34,731 nt of DNA from a virus (taxonomy: Duplodnaviria > Caudoviricetes): IMG/VR virus record IMGVR_UViG_3300032296_003686, positions 1 to 34,731 of that record; one strand, given 5' to 3'. Numbering within the stretch: position 1 is the stretch's first letter; every line of letters starts with the position of its first letter. Of this stretch, positions 1,026 to 16,927 are shown piece after piece. The notes below the pieces were generated by a model. It ran no database searches. It was not told the DNA's origin and worked only from the letters and a program-made list of their open reading frames with translations. Position numbers and translations under genes: made by a program.

Positions 1026-1538
1026 ATGCCCCGCTCCACCCCCAGCATCCTCGCCACCGATCTCATCCTCGGCTACCTGCAGCACGCGGACAGCATCACC
1101 GCCGGCGTCCCGAATGAGGACACGCTGCCGAAGTTCCGCATGGACAGCGGCAACACCCGCTCCGCGCCCTGCCTCAGCCTCAATGGCATGGAAAGCGAAG
1201 ACAGCAACGGAGCCCGCCGCACCGTCACCGTCGTCGGCCTCATGCCCTACCTGCTGCGCAACAGCGATGCCAACAAGCCCACCGATGCCGCCAGCCAGTC
1301 CCGCACCATCACCGCCGCCACCGCCTCCGGCTACATCGAGCAAATGGAGGCCCGCCTCCGCGATCGCGACGCCTTCTTCGCTTACTGCGGCGCCCTCAGC
1401 CAATCCGTCCGCGAAGGCTGGCAGATCATCTCCTACCGCACGCTCAAGCAACCCGAGATCCAACGCGCCGAAGGCCAGGCCCCCAATGAATGCACCCTCG
1501 CCCTCGCCGTCGAGCTAACCCTCGCCTGGGCCGTTTGA
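1026..1538 (+). CDS. Putative neck/tail terminator protein
   Basis: 170 aa with C3-rich codons, between head and tail tube genes. Function positional. Confidence 0.5.
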   Translation: MPRSTPSILATDLILGYLQHADSITAGVPNEDTLPKFRMDSGNTRSAPCLSLNGMESEDSNGARRTVTVVGLMPYLLRNSDANKPTDAASQSRTITAATASGYIEQMEARLRDRDAFFAYCGALSQSVREGWQIISYRTLKQPEIQRAEGQAPNECTLALAVELTLAWAV

Positions 1539-1626
1539 GTTCGTTGTTCACGCTTCAGCGTGCCCGCCTCTTTGACACCCGCTGCTCATCACGGACCCAA
1601 ACACTCCACCTCAACTCCACTCCTCC

Positions 1627-2115
1627 ATGAAGAAACTCCTCGCCCTCGTTTCCCTCGCCGCGCTCGTGATGCCGCTCACTGCGCCCGCCGCCGACGTCAC
1701 CGTCACCGCCGCCAACGTCATCCCCGGCCCCAATGCCGATCTCATCACCGGCGTCGCAGGTGCCACCATCACCGCCGGCCAGATCGTGTATCTCGACTCC
1801 ACGTCGAACACCTGGAAGCTCGCCGATGCCGATGCCAGCGCCGTCACCAGTGGCAGCGGTGGAGCCCTCGGCCTCGCCGCCGGTGGAGCTGCTGCCGGTC
1901 AGTCCTTCGTTGTCGTGCTCAGTGACGACAACCTCACCGTCGGCGGCACGCTCGTCATGACCGCGCCCATCTACGTCCTCAGCGGCACCGCCGGTGGCAT
2001 CGCCCCGCTCGCCGATCTCGCCGCCGGGGATTACCCCGTCGTCCTCCTCATCGCCCGCAGCAGCACCAAGGCAGTCTTCAAGCCCCTGCGCGGACCCGTC
2101 GTCGTCTCCTCGTAG
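1627..2115 (+). CDS. Capsid decoration/cement-like beta protein with N-terminal signal peptide
   Basis: MKKLLALVSLAALVMPLTAPA-ADV looks like a Sec signal. Mature part has AGATITAGQIVYLD...WKLADAD...ALGLA, resembling DUF2190/cement-like phage proteins. Confidence 0.6.
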   Translation: MKKLLALVSLAALVMPLTAPAADVTVTAANVIPGPNADLITGVAGATITAGQIVYLDSTSNTWKLADADASAVTSGSGGALGLAAGGAAAGQSFVVVLSDDNLTVGGTLVMTAPIYVLSGTAGGIAPLADLAAGDYPVVLLIARSSTKAVFKPLRGPVVVSS

Positions 2116-2166
2116 TTTCTGCCTCCGCCTCCGACTCCGCCTCTTACTCCTCCTCCCTCATTCCTT

Positions 2167-2646
2167 ATGCACAAGCCCACCATCTATCAAGGCAGCGTCG
2201 GTCCCTGGAATGTGGACGAGCTCGCCGAAACCGGCCTCCTCACGGACACGATCAAATTTTCCCTCGACAGCGACGTGCGCAAAACCAAGGCGCACCTCAG
2301 CCCCGAGGCTCTCGATCAATACGTCCGCACCCGCACCATCACGCGCAGCCTGCTCATCGACATCGAAGGTGAAACCATCCTCGACGCCAATGGCCAGATC
2401 ACCGGCATCGCCAAAGCCTACGCCGGTCAAAACCTCTCCGTCTGCGCCCACTTCGCCGCCGCCACCATCGATGACGACGGCACCGTCACCAAGGCCGCCG
2501 TTGAGCGCCTCGGTTTCACGCGCGATCCCGCCAAGCTCCTGCAGGTGGTGAAACCCGCCATCGATCTCAGCCCGGAGACCGCCGCGAAGTTCACCACGCA
2601 GCTCGAATACTTCCCCTACATCGCCCACACCGCCGCCGCCGCCTAA
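2167..2646 (+). CDS. Putative major tail tube protein
   Basis: 159 aa, beta-rich, upstream of the chaperone pair and tape measure. Confidence 0.5.
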   Translation: MHKPTIYQGSVGPWNVDELAETGLLTDTIKFSLDSDVRKTKAHLSPEALDQYVRTRTITRSLLIDIEGETILDANGQITGIAKAYAGQNLSVCAHFAAATIDDDGTVTKAAVERLGFTRDPAKLLQVVKPAIDLSPETAAKFTTQLEYFPYIAHTAAAA

Positions 2647-2781
2647 CCGCCGCCGACAGTCCCCTCAACACCCCACCCCATTCCCTCCCATGCGCCGCAT
2701 GTCACCCGCTCAACCCGCGATGACCTGCGGCGCATGCCTTTTGTCTGACTTCTGACTTCTGACTTCTGACCACTGCCTTCC

Positions 2782-3633
2782 ATGCCTTTAATTCTGACCG
2801 ATCTCCGCCTCGCCTCCAGCCTCCTGGGGCTCGGCTTTCCCGGCACCTTGCATGCCACCGTCATCGCCGCCACGCGGGAGTTGCGCGTCGAGGTTCACTT
2901 TGACGGCCCCAGCCCGCGTTTCCCGCAGTTGCACGCCCGCCAGCTCATCGCCCAGTGGCAGGATTCCCGCTTCCTGCGGCCTCTGCCGCTCGATGAGCAC
3001 GTCACGCTCCCCGCGCAGCCGCTGCACGTCTTCGCCGTCTCCATGCGCGCGCAGATGGCCTACGATGCCTATCAGAAAGTCCAGGCTGAAGGCGGCAGTA
3101 TCCTCGCCACGCCCGTCCTCTGGCGCACACGACCGGACACCCCGGAAATCATCGTCGCCTATGAGGCGAAGGTGGAAAAGCTCGCCTGCATGAGTCGTCC
3201 GCTGCTCACCCGCACGCTCGATGAGCTGCGCCTCGCCGCCGCGGTCCTCCCGCTCGGCTTTCCACCTTACCGCATCCACGGCAGCACCGGCGCGCATACC
3301 TACGAGCTGCCCTGCAGCGGCCTGCCCATCCACGACAGCGCCGAGCAAGTCGTCACCCATTCCCTCGCCCCGCTCATCGCCTGGGCCCCGCAGGGAGAAA
3401 AGCGCCTCGCCCTCTTCGACTCGCAGCCCCTGCATCCCGTCGTCACCGCCTACGATGCCCTCTTTGCCCGTGGCGAGCTCAAAAAAGAGATCCACCACGC
3501 CAAAGCCAACCTCCTCCTCCAAAGCCGCGCCCAGCTCGGCCTGCAGGCCCTCGTCACCCTCAACGCCAAGCCTCACGTCATGCGCCAGATCGAGCGCCAC
3601 TTCCACGCCCCGCCCGGCAGCATTGAAGCGTGA
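2782..3633 (+). CDS. Hypothetical protein with internal domain duplication
   Basis: TDLRLASSLLGLGFP resembles DELRLAAAVLPLGFP, and QPLHV...AYDA resembles QPLHP...AYDA. Confidence 0.7.
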   Translation: MPLILTDLRLASSLLGLGFPGTLHATVIAATRELRVEVHFDGPSPRFPQLHARQLIAQWQDSRFLRPLPLDEHVTLPAQPLHVFAVSMRAQMAYDAYQKVQAEGGSILATPVLWRTRPDTPEIIVAYEAKVEKLACMSRPLLTRTLDELRLAAAVLPLGFPPYRIHGSTGAHTYELPCSGLPIHDSAEQVVTHSLAPLIAWAPQGEKRLALFDSQPLHPVVTAYDALFARGELKKEIHHAKANLLLQSRAQLGLQALVTLNAKPHVMRQIERHFHAPPGSIEA

Positions 3634-3663
3634 GGAAGTTCAAAGTTCAAAGTTCCAAGTTTC

Positions 3664-4068
3664 ATGAGCAGCCTCGCCCAACTCATCGCCGATGAAAAAC
3701 GCATGACAGATGCGGAGCACCGCGAACTCATCAGCCGCGGCTACAAACCCAGCGTCGTCGAATTTCTGCACGATCGCGGCTTCCGCGAAGCGGGCGAGAT
3801 CCGCCACGATGACGGCACCACCTCGCCCACCTTCCTGCGCCAAACGCATTTCCCGCACCTGCACATCCCGGTGCATCCCGGCGACGATCTCGACAACGTC
3901 ATCACCGCCATCTACGACGCCGGCTACAGCGACGGCGGCGACCGCATCGCCACCCAGTGGCAATCCTTCCAGGCCGCCGTCAAACGCCCGCGCCGCCCCT
4001 CCGAAACTGAGCGCAGCATCGAGCAGCGCCTCAAAGCCCTCGAAGACAAACTGAGCACTGAGCACTGA
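3664..4068 (+). CDS. Hypothetical protein
   Basis: 134 aa with typical codon usage, flanked by heptamer arrays on both sides. Confidence 0.7.
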   Translation: MSSLAQLIADEKRMTDAEHRELISRGYKPSVVEFLHDRGFREAGEIRHDDGTTSPTFLRQTHFPHLHIPVHPGDDLDNVITAIYDAGYSDGGDRIATQWQSFQAAVKRPRRPSETERSIEQRLKALEDKLSTEH

Positions 4069-4107
4069 GCACTCATTCCGCATTCGTCATTCATCATTCC
4101 CCTTCCC

Positions 4108-4578
4108 ATGCTCCCTCACCTCTTCAACTCCCTCCCGCTTCAGCCCTGGTCCTCGCGCCGCGAGATGCTCTACCTCGCCCTCACCAGTCACCTCACCGAC
4201 GGCGGCGACTTCCTCGCCCAGGTCGAAAACCCCCTCGAATTCCTCCCCGTGCTGGAAAATGAACTCCGCGAGCAGCTCGCCAAGTCTCCGCGTCCCCAAG
4301 TCTCCGAGTCTCCCAGTCTGGATTCCCTCATCTCCTGGCCCCGCTTCCAGCGCGCCGCCGCGCGCGTCCTCTGGCTCGCGCAGCGCAGCAAAGAGGAGAT
4401 CCTCGGCCTGCGCAGCCTCCCGGAGATGCAGGCCGCCATCGATGCCTGGGCGGAGGAAAGCCTGCCCGATGAGCACTTGCGCGAAGCCGTCCGCCTAGCC
4501 CATCACATCCGCACCGAGCATCGCGACCGCATCGTCATCCCGCGACCGCAGAAAGGCGCGGACAACGCGGGAAACTAG
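4108..4578 (+). CDS. Tail assembly chaperone (gpG-like)
   Basis: Ends GCG GGA AAC TAG, with an in-phase G GGA AAC slippery heptamer before the stop. Lies between tube and tape measure. Confidence 0.75.
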   Translation: MLPHLFNSLPLQPWSSRREMLYLALTSHLTDGGDFLAQVENPLEFLPVLENELREQLAKSPRPQVSESPSLDSLISWPRFQRAAARVLWLAQRSKEEILGLRSLPEMQAAIDAWAEESLPDEHLREAVRLAHHIRTEHRDRIVIPRPQKGADNAGN

Positions 4579-4826
4579 CCTTGCCCGGCGAATGGGCGTG
4601 GTTTCACGCCCTCCTCGCGCGGGCCCTGCCCGGCACCACCCGCGAAGAGCGCGAGTGGCACACCTCCCTCACCGAAGCCCATGAAGCCATCCACGCCGCC
4701 GCCCTCCTCCATGCCGAGCCCGTCATCTGGCCCGATCCCGCCCGCTCCGAAATCGGCCGCGAACTCCGCGCCGCCGCCACCTACATCCGCCAGATCCAGA
4801 CCGAAGGCCTCCCGTGTGATTTGTGA
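4569..4826 (+). CDS. -1 frameshift extension (gpT-like part of gpGT), slippery site GGGAAAC at 4569-4575
   Basis: The -1 frame GGG AAA CTA GCC TTG CCC GGC GAA TGG... stays open to TGA at 4826 and has no ATG start of its own. Confidence 0.75.
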   Translation, partial: GKLALPGEWAWFHALLARALPGTTREEREWHTSLTEAHEAIHAAALLHAEPVIWPDPARSEIGRELRAAATYIRQIQTEGLPCDL

Positions 4827-4929
4827 GACGAACGTCCAAACTCTGCCGACCGAAGGGGCGGCCCAAAAGCAATGAATCAAGAAACGACTACATCCGCCCC
4901 GAAGGTTGGCAGCAGTGCCATGGTTCTGC
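4827..4929 (-). mobile_element. attC-like recombination site A
   Basis: GACGAAC..ACT-CTGCCGACC..GGGGCGG / CCGCCCC..GGTTGGCAG-C-AGT..GTTCTGC, with one extrahelical C at 4913. Confidence 0.75.
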
Positions 4930-5207
4930 CCACTTGTCCGAGCATCTTCCGCAATCACAGGCACGCAGCCGCATGGATGATCCGTATTGGTAGGGCATTG
5001 GATCAATCGAATGTGCCAATATCTCCGCACATCTCACGGCGAGACAACAACGATAACTTCGAGATTGCTCGAAAACTCATCGCCTGCGGAAAACGCATCG
5101 CAGAAAAGTATGGTGATGAAAGCAAGGAATCAAAGCTCCGAGCTAGGCTTCGTGCCGCACTCGCAAGGCAGAACGAAACAAGCCCATCTACGGGCGCAAC
5201 TGAATAA
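4872..5207 (+). CDS. Cassette ORF 1, hypothetical protein
   Basis: 111 aa with lower GC and atypical codons. ATG inside site A, stop inside site B. Confidence 0.65.
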   Translation: MNQETTTSAPKVGSSAMVLPTCPSIFRNHRHAAAWMIRIGRALDQSNVPISPHISRRDNNDNFEIARKLIACGKRIAEKYGDESKESKLRARLRAALARQNETSPSTGATE

Positions 5208-5321
5208 GCGAATGATAACCACTGAAGAATTCAACGCTGTCCTGCAAGAACTGGTCAGCAAGGCCGAAAGTCGCGCTAAAGATCAAGCTGAATGCCCGTT
5301 AGATGCGGCGGCGTGTTCTGT
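5168..5321 (-). mobile_element. attC-like recombination site B
   Basis: GCAGAAC..GCC-CATCTA-CGGGC / GCCCG-T-TAGATG-C-GGC..GTTCTGT, with two extrahelical bases (5299, 5306). Confidence 0.75.
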
Positions 5322-5517
5322 AACCCGTGTCCGCTACATGGTGGACGTGCAGGCCACTAGCGGTCGATGGGACAACGTAGAGGTCCGATACACGGAAACC
5401 GAGGCAAGGGACAAAGAACGCGAATGGAGGGCTTGGCTGAATGAAAACCGCAAAGCATGGAAAGACATTCGCATCGTCAAGGAGCTAACGATTGAGCGGG
5501 TTTTACAGAACGCCTAG
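5212..5517 (+). CDS. Cassette ORF 2, hypothetical protein
   Basis: MITTEEFNAVLQELV...VLQNA*, 101 aa. ATG inside site B, 4 nt after the ORF 1 stop. Confidence 0.65.
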   Translation: MITTEEFNAVLQELVSKAESRAKDQAECPLDAAACSVTRVRYMVDVQATSGRWDNVEVRYTETEARDKEREWRAWLNENRKAWKDIRIVKELTIERVLQNA

Positions 5518-5625
5518 CTCTGGCATCGCTGCCGAGAGTGCCACACCGAACCAACCAGATACCAATATGCCCAACGACATCGAAAACACAGCGGGCAGCG
5601 ATTGCCCAGAAGCGACTTGTTCGGG
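5505..5625 (-). mobile_element. attC-like recombination site C
   Basis: ACAGAAC..GCT-CTGG-CA-TCGCTGCC / GGCAGCGA-T-TG-C-CCAG-A-AGC..GTTCGGG. Confidence 0.75.
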
Positions 5626-5833
5626 GGATGCTCCCGACTTCATCACCGAGCTACGCGAACTCTTGAACCGCCGCAGCATGGAGAACGGCAGCGATACGCC
5701 CGACTTCATCCTCGCCCAATACCTCACTGACTGCCTGCGAGCGTGGAACCGCGCTACAAAACGGCGAGAGGATTGGTATGGGCGCACACCGCAGGAAGTT
5801 TCTTCCCCGAACAAAGAGCTCACCGACCAGTGA
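5567..5833 (+). CDS. Cassette ORF 3, small phage-type hypothetical protein
   Basis: 88 aa containing LLNRRSMENGSDTPDFILAQYL, a motif I recognise from uncharacterised phage proteins. ATG inside site C. Confidence 0.7.
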   Translation: MPNDIENTAGSDCPEATCSGDAPDFITELRELLNRRSMENGSDTPDFILAQYLTDCLRAWNRATKRREDWYGRTPQEVSSPNKELTDQ

Positions 5834-5871
5834 GCCTTAGCGAACGCCGTTCGGTGCAGCGCACGTTCGCC
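5806..5871 (-). mobile_element. attC-like recombination site D (short, terminal)
   Basis: Minus strand reads GGCGAAC GTGC GCT-G-CACCGA...TCGGTG-AGC TCTTT GTTCGGG, a textbook attC layout. Confidence 0.8.
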
Positions 5872-5950
5872 ATTCATTCCTCATTCCTCATTCCTCATTC
5901 TGGTTTCGTCATTCCCGCGCAGCGGGCTGCTTTGACTCCCGCCGCCTTGC

Positions 5951-6727
5951 GTGTCCACCGGCCTCATCACCATCGACAACGCCGCCTTCTCCGCGGCGCT
6001 CGCGCGCTTCGTGGCCACGTCCAAAAAGAGCAGCATCGAGCTCATGCGCCAGCAGGCGCGGCTCTTGTTTGTCGAGGTGGCCAACGTCACCCCGCCTGCT
6101 GGCGGCAAAACGGGTGCCACGCTCAAAGGCAAGGCCGCTGAAAAGGCCGGACAGCTCGCCATCGTGCGCGATTATCATCAGCTCTACGGCATGCCCGGCC
6201 GCGCGTATGGCGACATTCAAGCCAAGAGCCAACGCGCCGCCGATGCCTTCTGGTCGCACCACAAACAAGGCCGCGATCGTCAGGCCGGGCAGATCGTCAA
6301 ATCCGTGCTCGGCAAATCCTTCGTGCCCTTTGATGGCGGCAAGGCCGCGCGCGGCTTCCTCGGCAAAAAGCGCCGCAAGGAAGCGCTCTTCTACATCTCC
6401 AATCCCGCCGCGCTGCAGGAACATGTGCGCACCCTGCAGGAGCACGTTTGGTTCCTCGCCAGCGGCTGGGGGCATGCGCTACGCCAGCTCGGCGCGAGGC
6501 TCCCCTACGGCATCGACAAACACGCCGCCGCCCCCGGCTTCCTCCGCGTCAGCATCACTGAGCAGGCCATCGAGATCGCCATGGTCAACGACGTCCGCTA
6601 CGCCCGCCAGATCAAGCAATTCCAGGCGCAGATCGCCTTCGCCATGAAAGTCCGCGAAGGAGCCCTCACCCGCCGCTACGAAGCCTGGCTCGCCGCCCTC
6701 GCCAAACGCGGCCTCAAAAGTTCGTAG
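5951..6727 (+). CDS. Putative tail completion/neck protein (HK97 gp10-like position and basic composition)
   Basis: 258 aa, basic, GTG start 13 nt after TTGACT, with N(D)VRYA motif near the C-terminus. Confidence 0.55.
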   Translation: MSTGLITIDNAAFSAALARFVATSKKSSIELMRQQARLLFVEVANVTPPAGGKTGATLKGKAAEKAGQLAIVRDYHQLYGMPGRAYGDIQAKSQRAADAFWSHHKQGRDRQAGQIVKSVLGKSFVPFDGGKAARGFLGKKRRKEALFYISNPAALQEHVRTLQEHVWFLASGWGHALRQLGARLPYGIDKHAAAPGFLRVSITEQAIEIAMVNDVRYARQIKQFQAQIAFAMKVREGALTRRYEAWLAALAKRGLKSS

Positions 6728-6738
6728 TTTTTCGTTTT

Positions 6739-6758
6739 GTAGTCCCGGCTTCAGCCGG
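6739..6758 (+). repeat. GTAG-type REP-like element GTAGTCCCGGCTTCAGCCGG
   Basis: GTAG tetranucleotide plus hairpin CCGGCT-TC-AGCCGG, same architecture as the 8-copy 20-mer. Confidence 0.65.
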
Positions 6759-6847
6759 TCCGCCTTCATTCGTCTTTCCTCATTCTGGTTTCGTCATTCC
6801 CGCGCAGCGGTCCGCTTTGACACCCGGCGCTCCTCAAACGCCACCCC

Positions 6848-8764
6848 ATGTCCGCCGCCTCCATCGAAGCCGCCCTCCGTCTCGACATCGCCGAGCTTCA
6901 GCAAAAGCTCACGCTGGCCAACGCCGAAACGGACAAGTGGAAAACCAAAGTCGAAAACGGCAGCCGCGATGGAGCCCGCAGCGTGGACGGCCTCACCCGT
7001 GCCTACGGCCGCTTCAGCAGCGCCGCGCAATCCTCCGGCCGCATCATCAGCGGGAATACCGCCCTCTTCCTCCAGGCCGAAAAAGCCGCCACCGCCGCCG
7101 CGCGGGCCCAAAGTCGTGGTGGCGGTGGCATGCAGATCGGCGGCGCCGCCATGCAGATCCAGGACATCGCCGTCCAGATGCAGATGGGCACCAAGGCCAG
7201 CACCATCCTCGCGCAGCAGGGCTCGCAGCTCCTCAGCTACTTTGGGTCCGGTGGCATGATCGCGGGCGGCCTCATCGCCATCGGCGGCGCTTTCGTCACC
7301 GCCGGACAGACCGCCAAAGACAACCTCGCCAAAGCCACGCAGGAGGCCGCCGCACTCCACACCGAGCTCACCGGCATCGCCACCGTCGGCACGCTGGAGG
7401 AGGTCACCGCCGGCATGCAAAAGCTCGCCACCTTTGCCGCGCAGGCCCGCGCCTCCTTGCCCGCGCAGGCTGGCGTCGGCGAGCTGGGCAATGACATCCT
7501 CTCCGCCCTCGGCACCGGCCCCACGCGCGATGAACGTTTCACCGCCGGGCAGCAGCAGCTGATGATGAGCGCCGAAATGCGCGTCCAGCTCGAAGCCCGC
7601 GCCCTCGAAATCTCCGCGCAGGAGGCTGAAATCACCGCCCTGCGCGCCCAGGGCCGCGAAAAGGAGGCCGATGAAATGCAGCGCCAGGCCAATCTCGCCC
7701 GCGAGATCATCCGCATCCAAAGCAGCGGCTTCAGCGATCCCGCCAAAGCCCAGCTCACCGCCGATGCTGAGGCCCGCAGCGCCGCGAGTGCGACGGCCGC
7801 CGCCACCGCGCAGCGCGCCAAAGACGAGGCTACCGTGAAGCAGCTCCGCGAAAAACTCGCCGCCCAGGAGCTCGCGCAAATGTCCCCGGAGGCCCGCTTC
7901 AATGCTCTGCGCGGCCAGCAGGGAGCGCTCTTCGACAGCATGGACAGCAAGGGCGGCCTCGCCTTCGACAAATCGACGGAAGGCCTGCGCGAGTGGGCCA
8001 AATGGCTCGAAAAGATCAACCGCCCGGACACCATGGCCACCGTCCTCGGCATGCTCGATGAAGCCCTCCGGCTCGAAAAGGAAATGGCCGCCGCGTCCGC
8101 TGAAGTCACGGCCGGAGTCGAGCAGCAAGCCCGCGCGGCGCAAGAACAGTATGCCGCCGCCGAGGAAAAGCAGCGCGAACAAAAAAAGGCTGAGGAAAAA
8201 AAGAAAACCGAGCAGCAAGCCGCTCAGAACGACATTCGTGCGGAAGCCATGCTGCTGCAAATGACCGCCGCCGGGCGTGGAGAGGAAGTGGAGGTCCTCA
8301 AAGAGGCCATGCGGATCAAAGAGCAAACCGGCGTCACCGATCAACAGGCGCTCAGTGCAGCCCGGCAAATGGTCACCCTCCGCCGCGATGCCAAGGCGGC
8401 TGAAGGTGGGCAAAAAACGGAAGGGGGCGCGGCAGCTGAGTCTACTTCATCGCGTGCTGCCCGCATGTTTACGGAAGGTGATCGTCAAGCAGGCTGGCTG
8501 CATCCCTCCGTCCGCGCCGGTCGCGCGAAGCTCATGGGCAGCGCTGGCGGCGGCGGCCTCGACCAATTCCATCGCAATCAGCGGACTGATAGTGCGTGGG
8601 AGTTGGCGCAGAAACAGCCCAGCGCGTGGACGCAGCTCCAGCAACGCGCCGCCGGCAACGCCGCCGTCGCCCAACAAGAAGCCGCCTCCAAACCGCCAGC
8701 GGACATGACCGCTCTCTTCCAACAGCTCATCCAGATTACTCAGAAAGGCCTGTTGGGTGCGTGA
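6848..8764 (+). CDS. Tail tape measure protein
   Basis: 638 aa, Ala/Gln-rich coiled coil, with MQIQDIAVQMQMG...ILAQQGSQL motif typical of lambda-like TMPs. Confidence 0.9.
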   Translation: MSAASIEAALRLDIAELQQKLTLANAETDKWKTKVENGSRDGARSVDGLTRAYGRFSSAAQSSGRIISGNTALFLQAEKAATAAARAQSRGGGGMQIGGAAMQIQDIAVQMQMGTKASTILAQQGSQLLSYFGSGGMIAGGLIAIGGAFVTAGQTAKDNLAKATQEAAALHTELTGIATVGTLEEVTAGMQKLATFAAQARASLPAQAGVGELGNDILSALGTGPTRDERFTAGQQQLMMSAEMRVQLEARALEISAQEAEITALRAQGREKEADEMQRQANLAREIIRIQSSGFSDPAKAQLTADAEARSAASATAAATAQRAKDEATVKQLREKLAAQELAQMSPEARFNALRGQQGALFDSMDSKGGLAFDKSTEGLREWAKWLEKINRPDTMATVLGMLDEALRLEKEMAAASAEVTAGVEQQARAAQEQYAAAEEKQREQKKAEEKKKTEQQAAQNDIRAEAMLLQMTAAGRGEEVEVLKEAMRIKEQTGVTDQQALSAARQMVTLRRDAKAAEGGQKTEGGAAAESTSSRAARMFTEGDRQAGWLHPSVRAGRAKLMGSAGGGGLDQFHRNQRTDSAWELAQKQPSAWTQLQQRAAGNAAVAQQEAASKPPADMTALFQQLIQITQKGLLGA

Positions 8765-8824: not shown

Positions 8825-9949
8825 ATGAAATCCCTCGTTATCCAAGGCAAACGCGGCGTCTTCCAGGTTAGCGATCCGCGCCCCGTCCTCAACCGCACCG
8901 AGGGCGGGCCGGATCGTTACATGGACACTTTCAGCCTCGATTACGATGACGACCTCGCTCCCGGCCAGGTGCATCCGCTTTATCCCGGCCTCATCCTCCG
9001 CGAGGCCGCCATCACCTGCGATGTCCCCGCCGTCATCGCCGGTGACCAGCGCATCCCCGGCATCTACTACGCCGAATGCCAATGGGACGGCACCACCGAT
9101 GCCGACAAGCCCGAAAAAGTCCTCTCCCAAAGCGAGACCCGCCAGCTCCGCCCGCAGTGGGAATCCTTCACCGAGCAGCGTCTCACCTGGCATGCCATGC
9201 CCAAAGCCATCACCGGCACCGCCAGCACCGATGTCATCGCCTGCCCCGCGCACGGCCTCAGCGCCGGGCGCAAAGTCGCCCTCGTCGATCTCACCGGCGG
9301 CGCAGGCCTCACCTCGCAATCCAGCAGCGCCCTCGCCACCGTTTACTACGTCATCAATGCGAACGCCGATGACTTGCAGCTCAGCCTCACCGTAGGCGGC
9401 AGCGCGGTGAACTTCACCACCAACATCACCGCAGGCTCCCTGGTCCCGGTCGAGTATCTCCCCGGCTCCGCGCATCCCGAGCTCCCGCAGATGTATCTCG
9501 ACAGTGTCCAGCTCAAACGCGGTGGCAGCAGCGGCTTCCACATCGTCGATCTCGCCTACATCGGCAAGCGCACCCCGCGCCCGTATCACCGCATCACCAC
9601 CGTCAACGGCCAGCAGATGACCAGCAGCATCCCGCTCGCCATCGGCCTCAGCGGCGGCTGGGTGGATGAGCGCCGCACGAATTTCTCCCTGCCGCAGATC
9701 TCCGTCGTGGACACCTACGTCACCACGGACACGCCCGCCACCAGCAGCGTCCCCAGCATCAGCACCCCGCCCGATGCGCCCAGCGTCCCCACGCTCACCT
9801 TCAGCGGCCCCACCGATAACTTCATTTGGAATTACCCCTACGGCTGGAGCCTCATGGGTGCCCCTGTCATGGACAGCCTCAGCTCCGCCATCAGCCTCAC
9901 CCTCCAGCAAAAGCAATACAGCTACATCTGGCCCATGCTCTTCACCTGA
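8825..9949 (+). CDS. Tail tip/baseplate-region protein
   Basis: Follows TMP. Contains an AHGLSAG...VYYVIN..DDLQLSLT.GG beta module common in phage tail proteins. Confidence 0.65.
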   Translation: MKSLVIQGKRGVFQVSDPRPVLNRTEGGPDRYMDTFSLDYDDDLAPGQVHPLYPGLILREAAITCDVPAVIAGDQRIPGIYYAECQWDGTTDADKPEKVLSQSETRQLRPQWESFTEQRLTWHAMPKAITGTASTDVIACPAHGLSAGRKVALVDLTGGAGLTSQSSSALATVYYVINANADDLQLSLTVGGSAVNFTTNITAGSLVPVEYLPGSAHPELPQMYLDSVQLKRGGSSGFHIVDLAYIGKRTPRPYHRITTVNGQQMTSSIPLAIGLSGGWVDERRTNFSLPQISVVDTYVTTDTPATSSVPSISTPPDAPSVPTLTFSGPTDNFIWNYPYGWSLMGAPVMDSLSSAISLTLQQKQYSYIWPMLFT

Positions 9950-9954
9950 TCCCC

Positions 9955-10251
9955 ATGAAACGCTACGACTACCTCACCGCCTGGCAAAACCTCTGCGCCC
10001 CCATCCTCGCCAACGGCACCCTCAGCATCGAGCTCACGCACGTGCAGCCCGGCCAGATCACCGCCGAGCTGCGCTTTCAAGACACCGCGCCCGATGTCCT
10101 CACCGCCTTCCTCAAAGGCGAGATCCATCCCCGCATTCAACAACAATGGCCCACCGGCTGCATGCTCGTCATTGATCCCCGCCCCCGCGAACTCCCCACC
10201 GGAGCCCTCGCCATCACCGTCAAACAAGCCGGACTGACCCTGGTGGATTGA
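9955..10251 (+). CDS. Hypothetical protein (tail module)
   Basis: MKRYDYLTAW..., 98 aa, starts 5 nt after the previous stop. Confidence 0.6.
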   Translation: MKRYDYLTAWQNLCAPILANGTLSIELTHVQPGQITAELRFQDTAPDVLTAFLKGEIHPRIQQQWPTGCMLVIDPRPRELPTGALAITVKQAGLTLVD

Positions 10252-10303
10252 GAACCCGTCACTCCGGTCAAGCACGTCATCAAAGTCACGATCATTCCCT
10301 CTC

Positions 10304-10927
10304 ATGCCCGGCACCACCGACAAAAAAGAAGTCCGCCTCCCGCGCGAACCCTCTGATCTCTACAGTTGGCGCAAGTGGGTCGTCGCCGCGCTCAAAGCGC
10401 TGGCGGGTGCCGCGGGCGTCAACCTCAGCGTCCAGGGCGCCAGCCGCGTCCAGCGCCTCACCGACAACAACGTCCACATCGATCTCCCCGAGGCGGCTGC
10501 TGCCACCGAAGAGATCTGGAGCAATTTCCAGCCCACCTTCGTCGATGCCACGCACATCACCGTCAGCAACGGCAGCTTCAATCTCACCACACCCTTCATC
10601 GGCGGCACCGCCATCAATGCCACCACCCCGCCGCAGCTCACCGTCGATGCCTCCGCGCTGCAGATCGTTTACCTGGTCGTCGATACCACCATCCAGACGA
10701 ATGCGGACAACTACGTCACCGGATTCACGATCAAGAGCCCGACGAGCAGCAACCTCACCATTGAGGCCTTCAGCACCGCGCAGACCAGCACCAACACCAA
10801 GCGCTACATCGAGCTCTTCCGGTGGCAAGCAGGAGCGCTCGTGAACCGCAGCCGCTACAACAACATCGGTGCCCAGGTCCGCGACGACGGCACCGCCACC
10901 GGCGTCCCCGTCTGGCAAACCTGGTAA
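10304..10927 (+). CDS. Putative tail/baseplate protein
   Basis: 207 aa, Thr-rich beta composition, C3-rich codons. Confidence 0.6.
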   Translation: MPGTTDKKEVRLPREPSDLYSWRKWVVAALKALAGAAGVNLSVQGASRVQRLTDNNVHIDLPEAAAATEEIWSNFQPTFVDATHITVSNGSFNLTTPFIGGTAINATTPPQLTVDASALQIVYLVVDTTIQTNADNYVTGFTIKSPTSSNLTIEAFSTAQTSTNTKRYIELFRWQAGALVNRSRYNNIGAQVRDDGTATGVPVWQTW

Positions 10928-10968: not shown

Positions 10969-11358
10969 ATGCGCCCCGCCGATCTCAACACCAACGACTG
11001 GCGCAACACGCCGCCCACGATCGAGCGCGTCCATGCCAAGATCGAATTCGCGCCCGTCACACCGGGCACCGTCGCGTGGTTCGCCATGGATCGCCATCCG
11101 CTCGGCACGGACAACCTCATCAGCACCCTCTTCGGCAACGACTTCAGCACCGAAAGCGCCGCCATCACGATCAACACGACGAAGAACGCCCCGCTCCGCA
11201 TCAAATACACCCGGCGAGCCTACAACCACGCCACCGGCGTCACCACCAGCACCGAGCTCACCGCACGAAACACCTACAGCCAGGCCAAGACCCCGCGCCC
11301 CACGCCCCTCGCTAGCTACACCTACTTCAACAATTTCCGCCTCGCGCAAATCGTCTAG
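10969..11358 (+). CDS. Putative tail protein
   Basis: MRPADLNTNDW..., 129 aa, starts right after a heptamer array. Confidence 0.6.
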   Translation: MRPADLNTNDWRNTPPTIERVHAKIEFAPVTPGTVAWFAMDRHPLGTDNLISTLFGNDFSTESAAITINTTKNAPLRIKYTRRAYNHATGVTTSTELTARNTYSQAKTPRPTPLASYTYFNNFRLAQIV

Positions 11359-11427
11359 CCGCCCGTCAATCCGGTCACTCAGGTCATCACGGTCCCTCCG
11401 CCTTTTTTTGACACGCGGCCGCTCTCG

Positions 11428-12069
11428 ATGGACTGGACCTACGACCTCGTCACCAACACGCTCGCCCCGGCCGAAACGCAGCCGAGCCAAATCCCGCTCA
11501 AATGGCGCAGCCGCGAGCTCATGCGTCTCCAGTTTGCCCGCGCGGGCACGCTTGAGCTGCTCCCCTCCGGAGCCTCCATCGCCCTCCGTCTCATCCTCGC
11601 CGATGGCACCATCGTCGCCGCTGTCACGAGCTGGACTGCGCCCGGCAGCGCCGCCGGTTACTACGAAGGTGATCTCATCCTCCACACCGACGAGCTCAGC
11701 AGCGCCTTCGAAGACGACGCCACCAAGCAAGTCCCTACCAGCATCGAGCTCCACTGGTGGCGCACCGGCCAGGCCGCCACGCCCTACATCAGCGACAACC
11801 TGCTCACCGCCGCGATGCAGCGCCCGCTCGCCCTCCCTGAAAGCGGCAGCCCCATCGTCCTCGAAGGAGCCGAAGCCTGGCTCACCGCCCGCGCCCTGCG
11901 CTTTGATGAAGCGCAGACCCTCACGAGCACGCAGATCGCGCAAGCCTTCGAGAACCTCGGCCTCGACATCAAAAGCGCCACCATCCTCCGCGGCTGCCTC
12001 CGCCTCGTCCTCGCCGACGACACCGTCACCCATCTCCCCCTCACCACCGGCGAGCCGCCCGCCCTCTGA
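11428..12069 (+). CDS. Putative upper-baseplate/fibre adaptor
   Basis: 213 aa. Beta N-terminus, then LRFDEAQTLTSTQIAQAFENLG, a fibre-type motif. Preceded by the TTGACA motif. Confidence 0.55.
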   Translation: MDWTYDLVTNTLAPAETQPSQIPLKWRSRELMRLQFARAGTLELLPSGASIALRLILADGTIVAAVTSWTAPGSAAGYYEGDLILHTDELSSAFEDDATKQVPTSIELHWWRTGQAATPYISDNLLTAAMQRPLALPESGSPIVLEGAEAWLTARALRFDEAQTLTSTQIAQAFENLGLDIKSATILRGCLRLVLADDTVTHLPLTTGEPPAL

Positions 12070-12098
12070 TCATTCTCCATTTTTCAATTTTCAGTCTC

Positions 12099-13769
12099 AT
12101 GAAACGCCTCGCCCTCACCCTGTTCGTTGTTCACGCTTTAGCGTGCCTCTCCACCGCCCAAGTCGCTGAAAACCAATGGCGCTTCAGCAAACGCAACGCC
12201 AACGGCACCTACACCGACTACGGCCTCACCGCCGTCAACGGCCAAGCCATCGGCTTCACCGGCGGCGTCCCCAGCATGCTCAGCATCGCCGGCGGAGCCT
12301 GGGGCAGCATCACTGGCACCCTCAGCAGCCAGATCGATCTGCAGACCGCGCTCGATGCCAAGCTCGCCACCAGCACCGCTGCCAGCACCTACCAGCCGCT
12401 CGACAGCGATCTCACCGCCATTGCCGCGCTCACCACCACCAGCTTTGGCCGTGAGCTGCTCACCCGTGCCGATGCCGCCGCCACGCGGAGCGCCCTCGGC
12501 CTCGGCACCCTCGCCACGCAAAGCGCCACCATCAGCGACTACCTCACCCTCGCCACCGCCGCCAGCACCTACCAGCCGCTCGCCTCCCGCCTCACCTCCA
12601 TCGCCAATCTCGCGGACGCCGCCGGAGTGCTCACCAACAACGGCAGCGGCACTTTCAGCTACACCGCCACCAGCACCGGCGGGAACACGCTCGGCCTCGA
12701 TGCGGGCAAAATCGCCGTTTATGGGAGCAATGGCGAGCTCAAAGCGGCGTCTGCGCTGCGACTTACCGCAGGCCCGAGTGTGATGGGAATTTTTTTCAAC
12801 GACGGCGGTAGCGTCCCCGGCCGACTCACCTCCGACACCAGTGGCTTTGGCTCCCGCCTTTGGACCTTGCCCAACGTCAGTGGCACCCTCATCACCACCG
12901 GCGACACCGGCACCGTCACCAACGCCATGCTCGCCGGCTCCATCGCGATCTCCAAGCTCGCCATCACCGGCACGCCCGACGGCACCAAATACCTCCGCGA
13001 CGACGGCACGTGGCAAACCGTGAGCAGTGGCGCGACACTCGGCGCGAACACTTTTACCGCACTGCAAACCGTCAACCTAACCGCTCTAGGCACCACGCCG
13101 TCTTCAGGCGCGACCTTGACCAACACAACGGCCGCAGCAGCTGGATCCCAGCAAGTCAGCCCATCCCTCACTTGGGCAGGCCAAGGGTGGAAAACCAACG
13201 CCACCGCCGCCAGTCAGCAGACGGAGTTCAGGGCGAATGTGCTGCCAGTCCAAGGCGCAGCTAATCCGACCGCCATTTGGCAACTACAGAAATCCATTAA
13301 CGGGGAAGCGTTTGCCAACATCCTCACAGCATCAGCAACCAACGCAAGCGGCGATACGGCGCTAGTGATCGGTAGCACGACGGCGGCGACGACAATCACC
13401 ACCGCAGTCGGGCTATATACAACATTTTCGATTTCTGGTGGCAGCTTCCGATTTGTTGAGGGGGGGGTTGTTGCTCAGAACATGGCTTTTAACCGTTTTT
13501 CACTCGGATCAGGGATTGCCTTCGAATGGTCCTCAACAACCGCTGCAACTGGGACAGGGGACTTAATCCTATCCCGCATCGGCGTCGGCATCCTCGGCAT
13601 CGAAGGCAGCAGCACCGGTGGAGCCATCCAGCTCCGCGAAATGACCGCCCCCAGCGCCCCCGCCGCCGATCGCGCCCGTCTTTGGATCGAAGACAATGGA
13701 TCCGGCAAAACCCGCCTCATGATCCAATTCGGCAGCGGCACCGCCCAGCAAATCGCCATCGAGCCCTAA
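12099..13769 (+). CDS. Tail fibre / receptor-binding protein with N-terminal signal-like peptide
   Basis: Motifs WGSITGTLSSQ.DLQTALDAK, YQPLDSDLTAIAAL, ATRSALGLGTLATQ, YLRDDGTW. Gly/Thr/Ser/Ala-rich, 556 aa. Confidence 0.85.
   Translation: MKRLALTLFVVHALACLSTAQVAENQWRFSKRNANGTYTDYGLTAVNGQAIGFTGGVPSMLSIAGGAWGSITGTLSSQIDLQTALDAKLATSTAASTYQPLDSDLTAIAALTTTSFGRELLTRADAAATRSALGLGTLATQSATISDYLTLATAASTYQPLASRLTSIANLADAAGVLTNNGSGTFSYTATSTGGNTLGLDAGKIAVYGSNGELKAASALRLTAGPSVMGIFFNDGGSVPGRLTSDTSGFGSRLWTLPNVSGTLITTGDTGTVTNAMLAGSIAISKLAITGTPDGTKYLRDDGTWQTVSSGATLGANTFTALQTVNLTALGTTPSSGATLTNTTAAAAGSQQVSPSLTWAGQGWKTNATAASQQTEFRANVLPVQGAANPTAIWQLQKSINGEAFANILTASATNASGDTALVIGSTTAATTITTAVGLYTTFSISGGSFRFVEGGVVAQNMAFNRFSLGSGIAFEWSSTTAATGTGDLILSRIGVGILGIEGSSTGGAIQLREMTAPSAPAADRARLWIEDNGSGKTRLMIQFGSGTAQQIAIEP

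Positions 13770-16732: not shown

Positions 16733-16927
<195 letters not shown>

Follow-up and report, generated by a model that had tools for sequence, protein, structure and literature searches.

An integrase-less, reversed integron cassette array at a resident attC-type site of a temperate phage, likely moved by the integron integrase of its likely Verrucomicrobiaceae host

Introduction

Clusters of attC sites on phage genomes are already known. Qi et al. (2023; PMC9892861) described 17 phage CALINs, reported that IntI1 recombined five of six phage sites and suggested off-target or illegitimate capture as the origin, and published phage attC clusters have been read mainly as captured bacterial fragments. 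By the rule of Cury (2016; 10.1101/030866), a CALIN consists of at least two attC sites on the same strand within 4 kb and no IntI nearby. With respect to the sites themselves, AAC is the only stretch conserved in all attC sites, the crossover takes place between bases A and C of the bottom-strand AAC, and the first unpaired base of the bottom strand is usually G (Nivina, 2016; PMC5027507).

The locus analysed here is an array of three cassettes with four attC-type sites, A to D, the last of which is short and gene-less. Like the phage CALINs of Qi et al. (2023), it holds several attC sites and small genes without a phage IntI, and its relatives carry DNA methyltransferase cargo as well; however, empty and filled alleles, a resident dock and a host IntI, all three of which are features here, do not figure in the available text of that paper. 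Checked on sequence, the TJE1 array of the same study has the usual orientation, unlike the window array, while the ctTUS972 array is reversed like the window array, a point on which the available text is silent and which the figures may show. The reversed layout of a phage CALIN from that study is seen at L145:2069-3738 (MW202573), with ORFs that end across AAC. The sedentary chromosomal integrons of Verrucomicrobiaceae share with the phage array the attC family, the GTTC/GTTA cores, the side of the unpaired base and the box complement across cassettes, but the phage array possesses neither intI nor attI, has a solo attC at the attI position and carries bottom-strand genes that overlap the sites. 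In the case of attG insertion (Loot et al., 2024, via PMC12901181), cassettes likewise reside outside the integron platform and IntI acts in trans, as it probably does here, whereas the phage acceptor, a complete attC that pairs with itself, is conserved from phage to phage and reused with different cassettes. A full-text literature search, with most subscription papers outside its reach, found neither reversed phage cassettes nor a solo-attC dock described. What is new, with phage attC clusters as such already described, are the exact pairs of empty and filled alleles and the solo-attC dock.

Results

The window, that is the whole stretch of 34,731 nucleotides that was analysed, is an entire 34.7-kb freshwater virus record bounded by direct terminal repeats, with genes for gpA terminase, portal, ClpP protease, capsid, tape measure protein, endolysin and repressor. 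The array is located just upstream of the tape-measure gene, which agrees with the tail operon of the original prediction, but the two genes flanking the array, without a match in Pfam or PHROG, lend that label no family support. The cassette bodies are indeed of lower GC content, 52-60% versus 65-67% in the adjoining genes, and an Rfam search over 3500-7500 returned no relevant family. The statement that an integron integrase is missing is right in that the phage encodes none, but it passed over an ordinary phage integrase (Table 1), the sole tyrosine recombinase of the window contig, which scores 26.6 bits against the IntI profile cut-off of 265 and is without the IntI insertion. The window phage is temperate. 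The genome G001, titled Verrucomicrobiaceae bacterium, provides the tRNA gene matched by the likely attP core, and its bin also contains a circularly permuted copy of the window phage; judged by binning and the 47-bp tRNA match, this bacterium is likely the host.

Table 1. Coordinates of the array and associated features. Positions refer to the window unless a locus is named; spacers are given as 5'/3'.
Feature	Position	Strand	Details
attC site A	4827..4929	+ (bottom, recombinogenic strand)	called by structure detector; covariance model 51 bits; spacers 6/6
Cassette 1 (attC A + body)	4833..5173	+	341 bp
ORF1	4872..5207	+	111 aa; phrog_23588; start in site A loop, end in site B arm
attC site B	5168..5321	+	long loop; spacers 7/5; covariance model 27 bits
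Cassette 2	5174..5510	+	337 bp; boxes 7/7
ORF2	5212..5517	+	101 aa; ATG in site B loop, stop in site C arm; no family match
attC site C	5505..5625	+	spacers 5/5; covariance model 48.5 bits
Cassette 3	5511..5811	+	301 bp; boxes 7/7
ORF3, common small phage protein	5567..5833	+	88 aa; phrog_31227 and others; start in site C loop, stop codon supplied by site D
Site D, short gene-less attC-type	5806..5871	+	spacers 5/4; covariance model 28.5 bits
TCATTC-rich intergenic repeat	5871..5945		91% copy at 6766-6830; often adjoins D sites
Ordinary phage integrase	15694..16851	-	phrog_1 at 147 bits
Likely attP core	16811..16857		47 bp; identical to 3' half of tRNA-Pro(GGG) gene, genome G001
AAC-N5-TT ends (bottom-strand coordinates)	L103:3170, L104:2566, L105:2362, L107:2668, L110:2269		other phage arrays
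AAC-N5-TT ends (bottom-strand coordinates)	L111:2308, L112:2391, L115:2677, L119:2317, L121:2280		other phage arrays

The four imperfect inverted repeats of the original prediction are all in place (Table 1). A structure detector, written after sites A-D had been seen, called only these four on both strands of the 34.7 kb, compared with six scattered hits in ten shuffles. A covariance model from 28 aligned of 41 attC sites beside true intI genes of the likely host family placed A, C, D and B at ranks one to four in the window, all on the + strand, with the best unrelated hit at 12.9 bits. On folding as single-stranded DNA, the energy of A-C is unremarkable (z 0.0 to -1.6) and does not by itself single these sites out, and that of D is better than shuffles (z -2.5 and -3.1). 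The minimum-energy fold of D consists of two small hairpins instead of the attC stem, and for D-type sites the covariance-model score on the opposite strand is almost as high. In the lineage of the window and L001, a small alternative hairpin inside D (5819-5834) changes together with the main stem, at three positions at once, and this hairpin may act as a folding switch.

Each site has the anticipated unpaired base after a 3-bp stem (C, C, A and C in A-D), and in all four it is the 3' arm of the + strand that carries it; in attC sites the extrahelical base lies on the L''-R'' arm and so defines the bottom strand. The same side is seen in host sites, the strand of which is fixed by intI and where the side of the unpaired base is the bottom strand. 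The side of the unpaired base, the strand called by the model and the natural junctions agree that the + strand is the bottom strand of sites A-D. In contrast to the usual G, the first unpaired bottom-strand base is C or A in these sites and likewise in host sites. The spacers of A and C are within the usual 5-6 bases and those of B and D one base off, values that also occur in host arrays. Sites A-D present paired AAC/GTT boxes on an imperfect hairpin, as attC sites do, while every box reads GAAC/GTTC and so departs from the extended consensus RYYYAAC/GTTRRRY. The suggestion that the GTTC/GAAC core is a phage variant did not survive comparison, being shared by 34 of 43 host and 30 of 50 phage cassettes and mixing with GTTA within arrays; as GTTC is the commonest core in hosts and phages alike, it marks the lineage, and a phage-specific core is rejected. 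Sites A-D belong to the attC class of the likely host family.

The outer boxes complement each other across each cassette body at 7/7 and the outermost pair matches at 6/7, both as initially described. The crossover at site A would fall between 4832 and 4833 (GACGAA^C), and the first six bases of this site stay in the empty allele with the remainder being part of cassette 1. The predicted units of the three cassettes sum to 979 bp, and D is predicted to stay. Three small ORFs are present as claimed, but they are not simply separated by the repeats, since each starts in the loop of its own site and ends in the arm of the next. ORF1 and ORF3 have non-cassette homologues, and the family matches begin past the attC-coded first 26-28 residues; a second ATG of ORF1 is located directly before the GTT box and aligned with the start of the non-cassette homologues. 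No detector-called pair of sites surrounds the gene at any of 35 loci with ORF3 homologues, the exceptions nearby being one weak upstream site in L009 and a degenerate site seen by eye in L008. Lower-GC divergent or multi-gene cassette bodies were observed in L064 (about 1250-3060, - strand), L065 (about 2080-3060, - strand) and L048 (17619-18240), with HTH-like small genes and degenerate sites missed by the detector.

What the original prediction overlooked is that sites and genes run in opposite directions. Of 18 phage cassettes, which take in the two from L071, 17 have their longer ORF on the bottom strand and one is a tie, versus 8 of 45 host cassette intervals (p 1.6e-8, rows not independent), another 37 of which have a longer top-strand ORF. 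The boxes of these phage cassettes complement at 7/7 in 16 and at 6/7 in two; sites without a next site within 1.6 kb, three pairs with box matches of 3/7, 3/7 and 5/7, and a single host row had been excluded beforehand. PHROG families matched seven of the 18 bottom-strand ORFs (two DNA methyltransferases) versus none of the 18 top-strand frames. A separate motif scan of viral contigs, with 27 loci and five D loci, gave 34 cassettes with the bottom strand, seven with the top strand and six ties out of 47. An ATG within the site that reads through the body is found in 29 of 50 phage but 1 of 43 host cassettes, and one immediately preceding the GTT box in 12 of the 50 versus 1 of the 43.

The empty site foreseen by the original prediction, GACGAAC joined to D, exists in nature. 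It was found in L073, a 99.9% identical phage copy with seven differences in 8059 bases and a clean 979-bp gap at GAAC, in L001, a relative about 80% identical, and in contigs of three other studies (runs X2, X3 and X4), where 4828 is joined to 5808, while run X1, which may be the source run, carries the filled form; four of the 20 runs containing the stretch were compared, as contigs. The joint of the empty allele has five shared bases. The natural junctions lie inside a 5-base stretch ending in the bottom-strand AAC, within which the sequence cannot fix the exact bond. Two low-depth contigs of X2 with cassette 2 contain 5171-5243 and 5215-5511 without differences, followed by other DNA.

Relatives differ by whole cassettes with breakpoints at GAAC, again in agreement with the original prediction. 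In addition to L073, another phage (L006) carries cassette 1, 94% identical, alone before its D site with both ends at GAAC and unrelated neighbour genes; L061 is empty and L072 has one cassette at the same junction, the pair being 85-88% alike; and L063 and L065, about 90% alike, have different cassettes at one junction. Whole cassettes at the GAA^C box set the phage alleles apart, and the same cassette occurs at D sites of different phages and loci. The direction of change is unreadable, since one A x D excision fits the empty/filled pair as well as three insertions. That new cassettes always enter next to D was considered and is not shown, as the alleles give no order. A joint of an excised circle was not seen in contigs of the four runs, nor a rearranged array in contigs of X1, the run with the filled allele; contigs drop rare forms. 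L071 is without a 1.76-kb core-gene block that lies between two D sites of L069 (L069:2997-3056 and a second about 1.76 kb on) and has two cassettes instead. This difference may stem from recombination between the two D copies or else from a chimeric assembly and, because of the latter, is not counted as an allele pair.

Among viral contigs the D pattern matched 14 loci, spread over 11 contigs of which two belong to one phage; it also matched eight metagenome loci, partly of the same phages, and a single locus in the genome collection, this hit being the window phage itself. A high-copy host repeat is ruled out as the nature of D, as the single hit of the genome collection lies on the phage contig. 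A D-like site was not found in 21 host integron regions. A single phage can possess up to three D copies, and L048 has another D variant. D closes arrays at several loci, last on the + strand and thus in the place that attI takes in an integron, and is oriented along the C-rich coding strand in 14 of its 15 contexts, with skew as the proxy. In 13 sequences of this small and related set, chosen by a pattern built from the first seven, all 182 cells pair in the attC fold versus 20-40% in slid controls; three of 14 pairs have changed on both sides, a count that alone is no better than shuffles (187 of 500). Empty alleles keep the near-complementary ends of D.

In the AAC frame, all 14 D variants carry a stop within 1-9 codons, placed at several different positions, compared with 2 of 14 that have one as close in another frame. 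Of the 37 cassettes with any open frame (53 examined), 32 keep the AAC frame open through the junction. No partner box occurs within 600 bp downstream of D in 16 of 16 contexts, which rules out D as a cassette with a body of its own; lacking such a box, D would not be excised as a cassette. In a near-identical phage copy, L142:2304-2650 (G001:C158) compared with window 11348-13767, the tail module is swapped for one with a D-type site and one cassette, and D seems to travel with module swaps.

Other phage arrays, without D, end in AAC-N5-TT (Table 1) at 10 of 16 terminal boxes versus 55 of 1546 in the background, often as AAC-AGTGA-TTA. Such an end is tentatively an attI-like simple site, the label being tentative because only 2 of the 14 host boxes listed show AAC-N5-TT. 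The TCATTC-rich repeat next to D has further intergenic occurrences at window 4070-4099 and 6756-6830, and in L004 and L006 its reverse complement is located upstream of the array, so that D stands between inverted copies. This repeat is present in many contigs of runs X1-X4 but has only three matches in G001, two of them on the phage contig.

Two IntI genes of G001 exceed the cut-off, and one of them stands at the head of an array whose sites are of the same kind; across the family, 36 of 81 genomes possess an IntI gene above the cut-off. The candidate enzyme of G001 is the IntI at L079:12724-13692, with the host attI beside L079:12559. The second IntI-like gene of G001 (L081:11904-13223) specifies a protein of 439 aa, extended by a long N-terminal stretch, and no attC is called nearby; similar long IntI forms occur in other genomes of the family. 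In a host integron, near-identical short hairpin sites in opposite orientation (L079:7752-7815 and 10633-10694) flank a block containing a transposase-like ORF (9338-10393), which, going by its motif, is putatively IS91-like.

Discussion

The array is real and mobile. With its attC sites called by covariance model, it is a CALIN by definition and not a complete integron, as no intI stands beside it, the attI position is occupied by D, which pairs as an attC, and the genes are on the bottom strand, where those of a complete integron are on the top strand and read from Pc. The main reading, to which we give a probability of about 0.83, is that of an integrase-less integron cassette array in which whole cassettes, in reversed orientation, occupy the GAA^C of the resident gene-less site D and are likely moved by the IntI of the likely Verrucomicrobiaceae host. 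The host IntI would bind the folded + strand with exchange between bases A and C of AAC, cassettes would be excised and inserted by attC x attC recombination with the enzyme supplied in trans, and D would stand in place of attI. A late phage transcript would read the cassettes, each starting in its own attC loop and stopping in the arm of the next site or in D; as the genes are on the bottom strand and D points along the phage sense strand, any inserted gene would be read by this transcript.

The same cassettes and the same enzyme could be at work with D being only what remains of the attC of an eroded cassette, hitchhiking on phage modules, and the array arising from a chance, attG-like secondary insertion. 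The D carried within the swapped tail module of L142, the many other phage arrays that end without D, and the insertion by IntI at non-classical attG sites cited in PMC12901181 are in line with this proposal. We nevertheless consider it unlikely, given that two-sided changes keep the fold of D, that the stop in the AAC frame is kept at different positions, that D occurs up to three times per phage and that empty alleles retain near-complementary ends, unlike a target-derived box.

While a host integron integrase is the preferred mover, another tyrosine recombinase, either the phage integrase or the host XerC/D, might move the cassettes, the former being encoded in the window and the latter being able to recombine single-stranded substrates (Nivina, 2016; PMC5027507). 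This seems improbable: the enzyme of the phage falls in phrog_1, has its own attP adjoining, is far below the IntI cut-off (26.6 vs 265 bits) and is without the IntI insertion, sites A-D match those beside host IntI, and a PF00589 match is absent in 7 of 12 related phage records, several of which are fragments but one of which, rated as 100% complete, carries D together with a cassette. Deletion without a recombinase, or phage homologous recombination between short GAAC matches at the bases of hairpins, would agree with the five bases shared at the joint, and integrase-independent loss of small cassettes is known (Loot, 2017; PMC5371416); yet such loss does not explain how one cassette came to be gained at unrelated loci with GAA^C at either end, nor the 7/7 box complement across the bodies, and we regard this account as very improbable. 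That the alleles are an artefact of assembly is hardly credible with even depth over the filled allele in X1 and the empty joint recovered in three other studies and a separate genome assembly, even though the L069/L071 pair could be a chimera via two D copies.

Building on movement of the cassettes by host IntI, a more far-reaching picture is that of a mirror-image integron, which we put forward tentatively and at somewhat less than even odds. One host IntI would serve two polarity-separated pools of cassettes, one readable solely in host arrays and the other solely in phage operons, D would be a phage-evolved replacement of attI, and cassettes would be made from phage genes at the start codon. 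As part of the same tentative picture, D would be an attC unable to leave, stationed behind core genes at several loci and donating a stop to incoming genes. A host-type cassette in D would be antisense, as would a phage-type cassette in attI relative to Pc; wrong-polarity cassettes being antisense in either array, the two pools would be separated. If true, the ATG before the GTT box would give a direct handle on the making of cassettes. ORF1 and ORF3 are also ordinary phage genes, so that states before and after can be compared for the question of cassette origin.

With respect to applicability, the 66-bp D, the three cassettes and a candidate IntI make up a system directly testable in E. coli. 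At the conserved dock, phages that are nearly identical differ by exact, entire cassettes, the cargo is of phage type, with small proteins and, in relatives, DNA methyltransferases, and it is oriented such that only a phage transcript would read it. If IntI moves these cassettes, phages would have a site-specific route for the trade of accessory genes that is powered by a host enzyme; phages thus likely borrow the cassette-swapping enzyme of their host to trade accessory genes of their own.
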